From Candidatus Nanohaloarchaea archaeon (GTDB lineage: Archaea > Nanohalarchaeota > Nanosalinia > Nanosalinales > Nanosalinaceae): a stretch of DNA of 4,726 nt. How positions within the stretch are numbered: position 1 is the stretch's first letter; each line of letters begins with the position of its first letter. Position numbers and translations under genes: made by a program. The DNA is taken from NCBI GenBank assembly GCA_047617745.1, contig JBLGBN010000033.1:1-4726 (forward strand), read 5' to 3'. Of this stretch, positions 1 to 3,736 are shown piece by piece. The notes under the pieces were generated by a model, which ran no database searches, was not told the DNA's origin, and saw only the letters and a list, made by a program, of their open reading frames with translations.

Positions 1-290
1 GCGACATCGATTCTGAGCATGCCGTCGTATGCCGAGTTCAGATCTGCTCTCCAGTTGTTGTATCCAACTGAGGAGATCTCTGCAATGATGATGTCGCCTT
101 CTTCCGGCAGATATCTTCCGGACATCGGAACGACTCTTACAGAGTTCTGACCGTATTCTACAACTCCTACGTATTTTGAAATGATTTTATCGTCTTCTTC
201 GTACACACCAGAGTTTGGATAAAGTTCATCCCCGTCGTAGACGGTATCTCCTGGTGTAACTAGTTCTTTTTCTTCTTTTACACGTGACAT
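1..290 (-). CDS. rrp4: Exosome complex RNA-binding protein Rrp4 (N-terminal part; runs off the window's left edge)
   Basis: Not in the ORF track. Manual translation from ATG at 290 gives MSRVKEEKELVTPGDTVYDGDELYPNSGVYEEDDKIISKYVGVVEYGQNSVRVVPMSGRYLPEEGDIIIAEISSVGYNNWRADLNSAYDGMLRIDV. It has the Rrp4 N-terminal 'VTPGD' and the 'GRYxPxxGDxxI' entry into the S1 domain. SD-like AGGTG at 302-306. Synteny with SBDS and psmA. Confidence 0.93.
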   Translation of the reverse strand, partial: MSRVKEEKELVTPGDTVYDGDELYPNSGVYEEDDKIISKYVGVVEYGQNSVRVVPMSGRYLPEEGDIIIAEISSVGYNNWRADLNSAYDGMLRIDV

Positions 291-436: not shown

Positions 437-871
437 ATGCGATGGGCAGAATCAGTTACAGCTGAAGAACTGGAATATACCCGAAGAAGTCTCACCTATG
501 GCCGACAGTTCAACCTGGAGTTTGAATCAGAGGAGCAGTCAGAAGAAACTGAAAATTCCAGTTTCTACGCTGCAGCTGTCGGAATGGGAGATGAAATAGA
601 GAAGGAAATGGAGCTTATTGAAGAAAATGTTGATGCTTTTCTAGACGATTGTATTACCGCAGATCTAGGTATTTATAGCGGAGGAGCAGACAACAGGAGA
701 GAGCATATCAACTCTACAAACTGGATTTTGAAGATGAAGAAAAAATACCGGAATCTGGTGACAGGTTCGTATGCGACCTTCAGTTTATACATGGACTTCA
801 GGTTGCTGATAGTCCATGGGAAAATACTTCTAGGTAGAGGTGTTAAGTTTGAAGAGAAGAGATGTAATTAA
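437..871 (+). CDS. Hypothetical protein (acidic N-terminal half, basic/hydrophobic C-terminus)
   Basis: 144-aa ORF with ATG start, an upstream TATA-like element and halophile-like Glu-rich composition. It overlaps the next gene. No motif recognised. Confidence 0.6.
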   Translation: MRWAESVTAEELEYTRRSLTYGRQFNLEFESEEQSEETENSSFYAAAVGMGDEIEKEMELIEENVDAFLDDCITADLGIYSGGADNRREHINSTNWILKMKKKYRNLVTGSYATFSLYMDFRLLIVHGKILLGRGVKFEEKRCN

Positions 872-1580
872 AGGGTTAACTACAGTAGGGTTTCTAAATA
901 TCACTGAAGGGTCTGCGCACCGAGATACACGAAACTTCGCACAGGACAAACTCGATCTCTTCAACGGCTATAATGGGGTCCCAAGACATTATTTTGAGGA
1001 TAGTAATTTCAGGGATAGAGTGGAGGAGGATTTCAACTATCAAGATCCCAGCAAACTGGTTCAAGGCGAGCCAAACATGATTGTGGATTTCAGAGTTTAT
1101 GACAACTTGGATGTCGATATATCTTTCTACGATGAGGTCGAGGACTTTTTCTCCGAGCATGGAGTTAATACAATGTGTATAGAGTACGGCGAGAATCTGG
1201 ATTCCAGTAATATAGAAAACCATGAGCAGGCTATCAAAATACTTGGAAACTCAGAGATTCCAGAATCGATAGATTCCGAAAGCGTGTACTCCAGGATTGA
1301 CACAGCTTATCAGAATCTAGGGGTTCAGGTATTTCTTGTTCCCTGGGATATCGCGGGCCCTAATGGAGGATACGAGTTCACAGGTATAGCCCTTGGAACA
1401 CGATCAGTCGTGGAGTTTGGCAGGAATATAGAATCTAACTTGGATATCACAAAACATGAAATCCTTCACACTCTGGGTTTAGACCATTCTGATAACCCTG
1501 ATAACCTTATGTACTACAAAGAGGGAGGGAGCGATCTTAATCCCTGCCAGTGGGAAGAGGTCAGAGAACAGCTTTCCTGA
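849..1580 (+). CDS. Matrixin-like (metzincin, peptidase M10-type) zinc metalloprotease with putative Tat signal peptide
   Basis: HEILHTLGLDH (1455-1487) matches HExxHxxGxxH and is followed by the Met-turn 'SDNPDNLMYY'. The N-terminus KRRDVIKGLTTVGFL is a twin-arginine motif. The ORF track starts at GTG840, but TTG849 is preferred because GAGGTG (837-842) lies 6 nt upstream, giving MKRRDVIK. Confidence 0.85.
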   Translation: MKRRDVIKGLTTVGFLNITEGSAHRDTRNFAQDKLDLFNGYNGVPRHYFEDSNFRDRVEEDFNYQDPSKLVQGEPNMIVDFRVYDNLDVDISFYDEVEDFFSEHGVNTMCIEYGENLDSSNIENHEQAIKILGNSEIPESIDSESVYSRIDTAYQNLGVQVFLVPWDIAGPNGGYEFTGIALGTRSVVEFGRNIESNLDITKHEILHTLGLDHSDNPDNLMYYKEGGSDLNPCQWEEVREQLS

Positions 1581-1581
1581 T

Positions 1582-2268
1582 CTAGACTTCTTTCATCTCG
1601 GTCTCTCCCGAAGTCATATCCTGGAGTTCATCGATCAGTTCGGATAAAACCCCGGCGGGAAGGGTCAATCTTGCGGTAAAGTAGTTATTACCCCACTGCT
1701 CCTCCTCGATCTCTGCAACCTGCTGTAGTTTGTCGTAGGCTTTACCGGCTTTATCATTCGGTATTCTGATAGCTACTGTTTTCTCATCAAGCGAGACCGG
1801 GATGATTGGTCTGAGTTCGTCGATCGCGTCCTCGAACTTCTCCTCAAGATCGGAATCCCAGTCAATGTTAAAACCGGCTTCTTCCAGCGCGTTCTCAACT
1901 CGTTCCGGAGGGTGCGGGTTACCGGTTTTCGGGTTTTGAACCCTTCTGGATATCATACTAACCAGTTGCTTCCATTTCTCCTCACGCATCTCGGCTTTCT
2001 GCTCGGTGGTTAGCTGCATGTCGCCTTTCTTGAATATCTCATCTGCAGCTTCCATTATCTGCCGGGTTCCAAACTCTTTCTCGATCTCGTCGGCTGAAGC
2101 TCTCTCCCCTTCTCCAGCATCTGTAAATATTTCCTGGACGAAAAGCATTCTCTGGATATCATGGTCTTTTCCCTCCAGTTTTGCTTCCTTCGCCAGATCG
2201 GGTTCAACGAGAATTTCGAACTGTTTATCTCCGCGGTACTGCACCTTGATCGCGTCTGAAGTATCCAT
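1582..2268 (-). CDS. sdo1: Ribosome maturation factor SBDS/Sdo1
   Basis: 228 aa with SBDS motifs FEILVEPD, IFTDAGEGERAS, LTTEQKAEMRE, NPKTGNPHPPERVENALEEAG and LRPIIP. Lies directly downstream of psmA as in the conserved archaeal cluster. Confidence 0.97.
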   Translation of the reverse strand: MDTSDAIKVQYRGDKQFEILVEPDLAKEAKLEGKDHDIQRMLFVQEIFTDAGEGERASADEIEKEFGTRQIMEAADEIFKKGDMQLTTEQKAEMREEKWKQLVSMISRRVQNPKTGNPHPPERVENALEEAGFNIDWDSDLEEKFEDAIDELRPIIPVSLDEKTVAIRIPNDKAGKAYDKLQQVAEIEEEQWGNNYFTARLTLPAGVLSELIDELQDMTSGETEMKEV

Positions 2269-2355: not shown

Positions 2356-3063
2356 TTATTCTAGCCCTCTTTCTTCTAGGTCTTCTGGTTCTACTCTGTG
2401 GTATTCCTCGTCGATGTCAACCAGAGCGAGTTCGATGTTCTCTAACTCAATATCGTCTTCTCCCTGTCTAAGCGCTTCTACAGCCATCTCGACTGCTTCT
2501 TCTTCGCTCAGTCCTTCTTCCCAGTTCTCTTCCAGGTGTTCCTTTGTCTCGTTTCCGCCTTTTCCTATTGCTATAGCGTTCCACTGGTTGAGTGTTCCGG
2601 AAGGATCTGTCTGGTATACCTTCGGATTTCCGTCTTTTACCCCTCCGGAGATAGTTGATACTCCGTAAGGTCTTACTCCTCCGTACTGTGTGAACTGCTG
2701 GCATCTATCGGCTACAAACTTGGCGAGTACCGGGGTTGGTATTTCCTCGTCGTAGGTCATCAGGTAGGTTTGTGCTTCGTTTCTTGTCTCATCGACAAGT
2801 GTTCTTCCGTCTGCTACCAGTCCGGATGTAACTAGACCGAGGTGGTCGTCTACCTTGAATACTTTCTCAGGGTTTCTTACTTTGAGCTGGTGGTTGGATC
2901 TGGTCGCTGCCAGCACGACACCGTTATCGTATGTTAGTCCTAGAGCTGTTGCTCCTTTCTTGACCGCTTCCTTTGCGTATTCTACCTGGAAAAGCCTTCC
3001 GTCTGGTGAGAAGATTGTGATTCCGCGGTCGTACTGTGCCTGCTGTTGGTTAGTCATCTGCAT
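2356..3063 (-). CDS. psmA: 20S proteasome alpha subunit
   Basis: Signature YDRGITIFSPDGRLFQVEYA, plus SGLVADGR, TQYGGVRPYGVS, TDPSG and AIGKG. SD AGGTGA at 3073-3078, 9 nt upstream of the ATG. Confidence 0.99.
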   Translation of the reverse strand: MQMTNQQQAQYDRGITIFSPDGRLFQVEYAKEAVKKGATALGLTYDNGVVLAATRSNHQLKVRNPEKVFKVDDHLGLVTSGLVADGRTLVDETRNEAQTYLMTYDEEIPTPVLAKFVADRCQQFTQYGGVRPYGVSTISGGVKDGNPKVYQTDPSGTLNQWNAIAIGKGGNETKEHLEENWEEGLSEEEAVEMAVEALRQGEDDIELENIELALVDIDEEYHRVEPEDLEERGLE

Positions 3064-3110
3064 TATTAGAATTCACCTTTGATAGTTATGTCAAAGTTAA
3101 GTCTTGGAAG

Positions 3111-3128
3111 ATTTATTAACCTGTTCCG
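3111..3128 (-). promoter_or_regulatory. Putative BRE/TATA promoter of psmA
   Basis: Minus strand reads CGGAACAGG-TTAATAAAT. The predicted start is near 3089, giving a short leader containing the SD. Confidence 0.55.
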
Positions 3129-3168
3129 TCCGTTTCTTTTTCCGCGAGGTTTCAGTTCCCTGGAACTG

Positions 3169-3183
3169 GAAAGCCTTTTTTAG
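3169..3183 (+). promoter_or_regulatory. Putative BRE/TATA promoter of the leader-tRNA-Ile unit
   Basis: GAAAGCC-TTTTTTAG resembles the archaeal BRE-TATA arrangement and predicts a start around 3204-3208. No TATA-like element lies closer to the tRNA. Confidence 0.55.
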
Positions 3184-3206
3184 ATTATGCGGACAGACAA
3201 TCTACA

Positions 3207-3236
3207 TGGGATGAAAGCCGGTTAACCGGCCGACCA
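3207..3236 (+). ncRNA. K-turn-containing hairpin (putative L7Ae-binding element) in the tRNA 5' leader
   Basis: UGG-GAU-GA-AA-GCCGG-UUAA-CCGGC-C-GA-CCA. C-stem UGG/CCA, 3-nt bulge GAU, tandem G.A/A.G pairs, and a 5-bp GC stem with UUAA loop. Contains box C-like AUGAAAG and box D-like CCGA. Confidence 0.55.
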
Positions 3237-3245
3237 CAGATACGG

Positions 3246-3373
3246 GCTCCACTAGCTCAGGGGTTAGAGCACCGTCCTTATACGGACCTCACACAGAAAA
3301 ATACTGGCCTTTGAAGCCCTGTGTGTTGCCTAAAGTTAGGCGGCGGTCCCGGGTTCGAATCCCGGGTGGAGCA
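3246..3373 (+). tRNA. tRNA-Ile (anticodon UAU) with a 55-nt intron at canonical position 37/38; CCA not encoded
   Basis: Acceptor GCTCCAC(3246-52)/GTGGAGC(3366-72) with discriminator A3373. D-arm GCTC/GAGC. Anticodon stem CCGTC(3272-76)/GGCGG(3339-43). Loop C-T-TAT-A(3277-82) plus A3338. Variable loop CGGTC. T-arm CCGGG-TTCGAAT-CCCGG. Confidence 0.93.
3283..3337 (+). other. tRNA intron with relaxed bulge-helix-bulge junction
   Basis: Removing 3283-3337 restores a 7-nt anticodon loop. CTT(A) at 3277-80 pairs with (A)AAG at 3332-35 (3 of 4 pairs), with bulges TAC and TTA. Internal stem CACACAG(3290-96)/CTGTGTG(3319-25). Confidence 0.85.
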
Positions 3374-3379
3374 ATTTAC

Positions 3380-3736
3380 ATGGAACAGATTGAAGAGGGA
3401 AGTCTGTGGAACGAAGTGGAGAAGGTAAAAGATTTTCACGGCAGGAATTTCTCACAATTGACCGATAATTTCTACATAATGAGAGCGGTTCTGAGATATT
3501 ACTCGGTGAAACAGGGAAAGTCGATCACCTCAGCGAGTATTTCTGATAATTTCCCCCTAACAGCGCCGGTTGCAGGTTCGTGTCTAACCGCTCTTGAGAA
3601 GCTTGACGTTGTTGAAAAGAGAACAGAGTCAAGTTCGAAGAGCCGTTATCTGCCCCAGGATGTCGATATGGAGAGGATGATGGAGCTTGAAGAGGTCTTG
3701 AAGAGGCGGCTGGAGATAGAGGATTTTTTAACCTGA
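3380..3736 (+). CDS. Putative winged helix-turn-helix DNA-binding protein (118 aa)
   Basis: The start is taken as ATG3380 because the track's 3311 start lies inside the tRNA. ITSASISDNFPLTAPVAGSCLTALEKLDVVEKR...SRY fits the helix-turn-recognition helix-beta wing pattern of archaeal wHTH proteins. The fold is judged by eye only. Confidence 0.7.
   Translation: MEQIEEGSLWNEVEKVKDFHGRNFSQLTDNFYIMRAVLRYYSVKQGKSITSASISDNFPLTAPVAGSCLTALEKLDVVEKRTESSSKSRYLPQDVDMERMMELEEVLKRRLEIEDFLT

Follow-up and report, generated by a model that had tools for sequence, protein, structure and literature searches.

We found that the 5' leader of the pre-tRNA-Ile(UAU) of a nanohaloarchaeon contains a kink-turn (K-turn) hairpin, and comparison with relatives in which the same hairpin lies between the same promoter and the same tRNA argues that it is a genuine kink-turn RNA kept by selection. 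The explanation towards which we lean is that the hairpin would be an accessory and dispensable module of the pre-tRNA leader, bound by L7Ae and removed by RNase P, and not a guide for tRNA modification. The stretch of DNA in which we analyzed it, hereafter the window, is a whole contig of 4726 nt from a genome of 834 kb in 34 contigs, labelled G000 where a label is needed.

Besides the tRNA gene, the window contains genes for Rrp4, a matrixin-like protein, SBDS, and the proteasome alpha subunit (psmA), together with three further open reading frames (ORFs) without a Pfam family (Table 1). The anticodon of the tRNA, UAU, is a rare archaeal way to read AUA. The Rfam tRNA model puts the first base of this tRNA at 3246, and not at 3243-3245, and places a 56-nt insert after its position 37, and ARAGORN, when introns are allowed, reports tRNA-Ile(tat) i(39,55), with an intron placement 1 nt off that of Rfam; at default settings, ARAGORN found no tRNA in the window. 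We observed that the intron contains a 7-bp helix (3290-3325) that covaries across the phylum, with a 9-nt A-rich bulge in its 5' strand, mostly beginning with GAAA or AAAA, and a small inner hairpin. Downstream of the tRNA, a 118-aa ORF without a Pfam family (3380-3736, plus strand) begins 7 nt past the tRNA end and, because of this short gap, probably shares a transcript with tRNA-Ile(UAU). Its homologues adjoin the tRNA in only 4 out of 30 loci, all of genus g1 and all carrying the hairpin, and we therefore ruled out this ORF as a partner of the hairpin. We also observed a 14-nt direct repeat (3198-3211 and 3372-3385, 12 out of 14 positions identical) that brackets the unit of hairpin and tRNA, the second copy sharing bases with both the 3' end of the tRNA and the ATG with which the following ORF starts; being absent from the relatives G001-G003, this repeat may be due to chance.

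Table 1. Features of the window, and related features elsewhere in the same genome (G000; contig names precede the positions).
Feature	Position	Strand	Remarks
Rrp4 gene	3-290	-	
Matrixin-like protein gene	840-1580		
SBDS gene	1582-2268	-	
Proteasome alpha gene (psmA)	2356-3063	-	
Promoter block	3169-3187	+	BRE-like purine-rich 3169-3175; TATA-like octamer 3176-3183; conserved ATTA
Predicted transcription start	3205-3209	+	predicted from TATA spacing
K-turn hairpin	3207-3236	+	30 nt, between promoter and tRNA-Ile(UAU); from sequence and fold
C stem	3207-3209 / 3234-3236	+	
Three-nucleotide loop GAU	3210-3212	+	
Tandem GA	3213-3214	+	facing GA 3232-3233
AA and C	3215-3216 and 3231	+	between G.A pairs and NC stem
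NC stem	3217-3221 / 3226-3230	+	
Apical loop	3222-3225	+	
Linker from hairpin to RNase P site	3237-3245	+	unstructured; sequence and length vary among relatives
tRNA-Ile(UAU) gene	3246-3373	+	Rfam RF00005, 52 bits; ARAGORN with introns
tRNA-Ile(UAU) exon 1	3246-3282	+	anticodon 3279-3281
tRNA-Ile(UAU) intron	about 3283-3337	+	55 nt
tRNA-Ile(UAU) exon 2	3338-3373	+	
l7ae 5' UTR K-turn	C32:2447-2471	-	upstream of l7ae, C32:2057-2434 (-)
Type-B module copies	C16:12304-12360; C1:10204-10260; C6:7719-7774	+; -; +	

The hairpin consists of a C stem, a three-nucleotide loop, GA facing GA, and an NC stem that is closed by an apical loop and that, in this genome, forms a perfect palindrome with GTTAAC inside. 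The minimum free energy fold gives the same hairpin, with an ordinary energy (z = -1.2). When the 62-nt leader was shuffled 200,000 times with its dinucleotides kept, a generic descriptor of K-turn hairpins matched 733 of the shuffles; it has 468 matches on both strands of the own genome (1.67 Mb). The hairpin shape in one genome is weak evidence, barely more than chance, which is not negligible here. In Rfam 15, at E-values up to 10, the leader had no match and the tRNA was the sole match in the window; the same was seen at the loci of 12 relatives, where the tRNA matched and the leaders did not.

The case for the hairpin being more than chance comes from its relatives, because orthologous copies there combine covariation with an invariant core. 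A DNA search of 41 genomes recovered the tRNA in 37 and, in several, the promoter block and leader too, and the relatives' loci show the same hairpin built from other stem sequences. When we searched 50 genomes of the family with a covariance model (R1) seeded on 11 copies of the hairpin, 19 genomes had one match each, and we accepted 18 of these, discarding the match in G059 (E = 0.06) that lies inside a coding sequence. All 18 copies are found downstream of the promoter and are followed by tRNA-Ile(UAU), except where the end of the contig truncates this tRNA, and 7 of them were recovered outside the seed of the model. Within the own genome, the hairpin is the single strong match (46 bits, the own hairpin being part of the seed); the further matches there (E 0.55-7) lie inside coding sequence and were rejected.

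In the alignment of the 18 copies, we observed compensatory changes at all eight modelled pairs, and the covariation score was reached by none of 500 shuffles. Across the alignment, 95.1% of the cells are paired, a value that is inflated for the 11 rows that were first picked with a pattern requiring pairing, and sliding the partner by one to three columns lowers the pairing to 16-47%. This bias in the choice of the seed explains neither the compensatory changes nor the seven independent recoveries. The C helix has four modelled pairs, all with compensatory changes and 97% of cells paired over the 18 rows, and its pair beside the loop is G-C in 17 copies and C-G in one; it is a short stem (3-4 bp), and in G001 it needs a bulge to form. 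The loop has a constant length of three nucleotides, is present on one strand only, and reads G or A, then A, then U in every copy. It is followed by the tandem G.A/A.G motif, which at the level of sequence appears as GA facing GA throughout (18 out of 18), and, after a step of one or two positions that are unpaired or odd (3b, 4b, and 3n), by an NC helix whose four modelled pairs all covary (93% paired). The positions that are invariant across the 18 copies, L2 = A, L3 = U, G1b, A2b, G2n, and A1n, are the six bases of the K-turn core; they are not Watson-Crick paired and make sense on the plus strand only, and the stems and the apical loop vary around them. Judged by its sequence, the hairpin thus has every feature of a simple standard kink-turn.

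The distribution of the hairpin is patchy, as it occurs in 10 out of 21 genera of the family. Among 70 genomes of the phylum, with none added from beyond the order, we found no convincing hairpin outside the family, and two weak matches in another family were set aside because they lie in an orthologous coding region. The hairpin is also missing at the tRNA-Ile(UAU) of close relatives, where seven loci, including that of G004 from the same genus, have short and plain leaders. Its role, whatever it is, is therefore dispensable in evolution, and a strong functional claim is weakened accordingly. G016 and G020 may have degenerate K-turns, which the covariance model did not pick up and which we left out of the count. 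The linker between the hairpin and the tRNA spans 9 nt in the window when measured from the 3-bp C stem to tRNA +1, or 8 nt when the stem is counted as four positions. Among the carriers, six genomes have a distance of 5-8 nt, three one of 18-38 nt, and seven one of 55-124 nt (in 2 out of 18 it was not measurable), and in seven genomes the whole leader measures 90-160 nt and contains further, inserted hairpins. A linker that ranges from 5 to 124 nt argues against a fixed geometry between the hairpin and the tRNA body. We further observed that in G003 (locus L017, reverse strand, about 1400-1450) the K-turn hairpin runs straight into the anticodon arm, and the 31 nt that make up the 5' acceptor strand and D arm in G002 are missing; this gap reflects either an actual deletion or a fault in the assembly of a genome that is 77% complete. 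From four DNA runs, we obtained no contig that spans window positions 3100-3240. In a related strain (run X14), a contig enters the tRNA, at window position 3245, from a leader in which the final 30 nt include the 3' half of a similar K-turn hairpin, and the leaders of other related strains (runs X10 and X13) are hairpin-less or resemble the type-B module described below.

The promoter block directly upstream of tRNA-Ile(UAU) is near-identical across genera and, weak look-alikes aside, unique in the own genome at up to three mismatches. We observed that it is unlike the TTTAAA-type boxes before other tRNAs of this genome. In all 18 genomes with the hairpin, the first position of the C stem lies 21-26 nt past the TATA octamer. 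For comparison, the mature tRNA itself begins (+1) at 25-27 nt past the octamer in the hairpin-less relatives G015, G024, and G004 and at 32-35 nt in G006, G023, and G022, and in G005, also hairpin-less, a weaker TATA-like motif stands 46 nt upstream of tRNA +1. In Nanoarchaeum equitans, box A of the tRNA promoters is placed 26 nt before the transcription start (PMC3491384). Since the C stem begins at the site that tRNA +1 occupies in near-leaderless relatives, the hairpin most likely occupies the primary transcript from its very first nucleotides on.

L7Ae-bound K-turns are known from rRNA, guide sRNAs, RNase P RNA, SRP RNA, and a few mRNA leaders. The own genome encodes one L7Ae (99 bits), which contains NEVTK, a form of the NExxK K-turn-binding motif, and this motif contacts G1b and G2n (PMC4919917), two of the invariant bases of the hairpin. 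It also encodes fibrillarin and Cbf5, as well as a candidate RNase P RNA that is low-scoring yet spans the full model length (39 bits, E 3e-10). All the proposed partners are thus present, and for that reason none is singled out by being encoded. The l7ae gene provides stronger evidence, as its 5' UTR contains a K-turn that combines a C stem of 4 bp and a GAU loop with two GA that face each other. The 3' strand of this K-turn overlaps the ribosome-binding site, and the K-turn starts about 23 nt past the TATA of l7ae. In 27 out of 30 genomes of the phylum, l7ae is preceded by this motif, at a distance of 6-20 nt from its start codon. This arrangement fits the known autoregulation of L7Ae: in Sulfolobus acidocaldarius, the l7ae 5' UTR has a GAU-loop K-turn that L7Ae binds in gel shifts and through which it represses (PMC5539422). 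Because the tRNA leader hairpin shares its K-turn core with the 5' end of the l7ae mRNA, we consider it probable, by analogy, that L7Ae binds the leader hairpin as well, and no evidence ties L7Ae to tRNA-Ile(UAU) specifically. These results bear out part of the preliminary description of this DNA, made from the single sequence, which had read the hairpin as a K-turn in the 5' leader of pre-tRNA-Ile(UAU), had placed the predicted transcription start right at its 5' end, and had named L7Ae as its plausible ligand.

A K-turn in a pre-tRNA leader was not described in Rfam or in the literature that we searched. In archaeal H/ACA sRNAs, the C helix points toward the rest of the RNA and the NC helix is closed by a loop, as is the case in the leader hairpin. 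The apical K-turn of these sRNAs and the K-turns of archaeal RNase P RNA are ligands of L7Ae (PMC4245976, PMC5499556), as we propose for the leader hairpin, but the latter has no pseudouridylation pocket and no conserved ACA and is not part of a catalytic RNA. It likewise differs from an H/ACA sRNA in that we found no conserved outer stem, an ACA in only 6 out of 18 copies, and no 5' flank at the predicted start. With the box C/D motif (consensus RUGAUGA and CUGA, as quoted in PMC5539422), the hairpin has in common the part that forms the K-turn, [G/A]AUGA on the bulged strand and [C/U]GA on the other, whereas it departs from box C at the positions after GA. A single C/D-like pair is present, a C'/D' pair is lacking, and a stem of at least 4 bp with its loop takes the place of a guide. 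The closest structural counterpart is the K-turn of the archaeal l7ae 5' UTR. As described for Sulfolobus (Daume et al., 2017, PMC5539422), it likewise lies at the transcript's 5' end, belongs to the simple standard K-turns, and combines a GAU loop and two G.A pairs with an NC stem that is short and capped. That K-turn, however, precedes an ORF and masks a Shine-Dalgarno sequence, whereas the tRNA leader hairpin precedes a tRNA and has nothing to mask. The closest counterpart in gene arrangement is found in N. equitans, also a DPANN archaeon, where C/D sRNAs are K-turn RNAs that lie on tRNA transcripts and are separated from them by a tRNA-processing enzyme (PMC3491384). As that study describes them, these sRNAs lie downstream of the tRNA (freed by RNase Z) or in its intron and have a full guide with boxes C, D', C', and D, whereas the leader hairpin lies upstream, on the side of RNase P, and is guideless. 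Having neither a following ORF nor a guide, the leader hairpin is a member of neither the l7ae-leader K-turns nor the tRNA-linked C/D sRNAs.

We propose that L7Ae would bind the hairpin at the nascent 5' end of pre-tRNA-Ile(UAU) and so form a small RNP on the leader. This RNP would cap the leader of a precursor that may mature slowly and that has a 55-nt intron with a conserved, covarying hairpin, until the RNase P cut at 3245/3246 would remove the leader together with the RNP. Here we infer each step, from the transcription start and L7Ae binding to the removal by RNase P and the purpose of the module. The effect would be auxiliary, in that the L7Ae cap may protect and stabilize the intron-bearing precursor or mark it; alternatively, 5' processing may be tuned to the level of free L7Ae. 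Such a role as a cap or sensor is a tentative proposal, which we hold to be possible but somewhat short of probable. A more far-reaching version is an L7Ae-centred circuit, in which free L7Ae on the K-turn would gate RNase P processing or the stability of the precursor and thereby link the supply of the tRNA that decodes AUA to the assembly of ribosomes and RNPs; this we regard as quite unlikely.

The alternative that fares best is that the leader is itself the product. RNase P would then free a K-turn RNA of about 40 nt with a 5' triphosphate, which would act in trans as an L7Ae-bound mini-sRNA, for instance by buffering free L7Ae, and the tRNA gene would provide the promoter and the cut that forms the 3' end. 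This possibility is in line with the dicistronic tRNA-C/D sRNA transcripts of N. equitans, another DPANN archaeon, which are freed by tRNA-processing enzymes (PMC3491384), with the conservation of the K-turn core but not of its distance to the tRNA, and with the seven genomes whose long leaders contain further hairpins. On the other hand, the RNA would be a bare K-turn hairpin without a guide or another evident effector part, and it has been lost in many relatives. We consider this alternative unlikely.

Less probable than the mini-sRNA, and in our view improbable, is that the hairpin is a passenger, i.e. a functionless remnant of a mobile box C/D-like element that is tolerated in a removable part of the pre-tRNA, as RNase P discards the leader. 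Its patchy presence would agree with this, as would the shared, repeated modules that tRNA leaders and introns of the family hold in both orientations and the view that C/D sRNAs are mobile in N. equitans (PMC3491384). Yet the hairpin is single-copy and always found at one locus, and six invariant core bases together with compensatory changes in both helices, kept across 10 genera, would not be seen in a neutral remnant.

The preliminary description had also suggested that a guide RNP is recruited in cis, with L7Ae on the leader bringing in Nop5/fibrillarin for methylation of tRNA-Ile(UAU) or Cbf5 for its pseudouridylation. U34 of the UAU anticodon plausibly needs modification, which is a point in favor of this idea, as is the presence of fibrillarin and Cbf5 in the genome. 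Intron-encoded C/D guides for tRNAs also exist in archaea (cited within PMC3491384). Nevertheless, the architecture of the hairpin speaks against it: the NC helix is capped by a loop, and therefore no guide strand can emerge from it, there is no second box pair, and pocket and lower stem are both lacking. The variable linker is a further point against a guide acting on the tRNA. The outer stem AUCU/AGAU that had been proposed to extend the hairpin would lie upstream of the predicted start, and its pairs are not conserved, nor is the ACA that had been highlighted. Moreover, the duplexes that we predicted between leader and pre-tRNA with RNAduplex, a crude comparison for the long leaders, had z-scores of -2.5 to +1.0 and were beyond shuffled leaders (at most 5 out of 200 as good) in only 1 out of 16 genomes. 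Taken together, these observations make a guide platform very improbable. Finally, the fallback of the preliminary description, that the hairpin is a chance match or a DNA operator, which we considered as a palindrome for a regulator of the divergent psmA and tRNA-Ile promoters, draws on the perfect palindrome of the G000 NC stem and on how common the generic descriptor is by chance, but has almost no probability left, because the palindrome sequence changes among relatives while the pairing is kept and because the invariant bases are the unpaired ones, in the sense of the plus strand only.

Other tRNAs of the own genome also have structured leaders. We observed a 56-nt module of two hairpins, which we call type B, in the leaders of tRNA-Val(GAC), tRNA-Ala(UGC), and tRNA-Ser(UGA). 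It begins with a D-box-like [C/U]UGA and a covarying hairpin, after which come a box-C-like GAUGAUC and a second hairpin. The AACU/AGUU stem of the second hairpin is invariant, and in the three leaders this hairpin ends at tRNA +1. A type-B model found 172 copies, the relatives' loci L072-L120 among them, which are spread over 36 out of 50 genomes of the family and reach a maximum of 13 per genome, and the first hairpin covaries at 7 out of 7 pairs. When we surveyed the context of 48 distinct copies, 10 abutted the 5' end of a tRNA on the same strand, 12 abutted the 3' end of a tRNA on the opposite strand, 4 were within introns of opposite-strand tRNAs, 6 were at 53-111 nt from a tRNA, and 16 had no tRNA called nearby. 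For 7 of these 16, an ATG, TTG, or GTG follows within 0-1 nt, and these seven copies have a Shine-Dalgarno-like AGGUGA or AAGUGA in the second hairpin. At the locus studied here, the type-B module is the tRNA-Ile(UAU) leader in G007, and it follows the K-turn hairpin within the same leader in G014, G046, and G012. A K-turn fold is uncertain for type B, as it would need a loop of 2 or 5 nt, and roughly one copy in five has another sequence in place of the first GA. It recalls the mobile, permuted C/D sRNAs beside the tRNAs of N. equitans, as these are portrayed in PMC3491384; a hammerhead-like or promoter-like nature was dropped after inspection by eye, and the module may be a K-turn, a mobile element, or a processing signal. 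In addition, a motif of about 13 nt (core GGUUACGCUCG) recurs in tRNA leaders and introns in both orientations: in RNA orientation in the tRNA-Ile leaders of G012, G054, and G010 and in the tRNA-Lys(UUU) intron of G000 (C14, about 7217, minus strand), as its reverse complement in the tRNA-Ser(GGA) leader of G000 (C13, about 5979), and also at about 18772 on C11 of G000. This motif is another repeated module of the removable parts of pre-tRNAs.

In summary, with a K-turn that sits in a pre-tRNA leader and opens the transcript, pre-tRNAs would join the L7Ae interactome. The hairpin is conserved, measures about 30 nt, and is carried by some close relatives but not by others, which makes it a compact test case for the effect of a leader RNP on RNase P processing, precursor lifetime, or intron-dependent steps. 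Because the UAU anticodon is a rare archaeal solution for AUA, control of tRNA-Ile(UAU) at the level of its precursor would bear on decoding fidelity. The type-B modules, found alongside, point to an unexplored layer of RNA organization in DPANN genomes. If they work alike, the L7Ae-centred circuit that we regard as quite unlikely would widen to a family-wide, leader-based L7Ae regulon over tRNAs and mRNAs.
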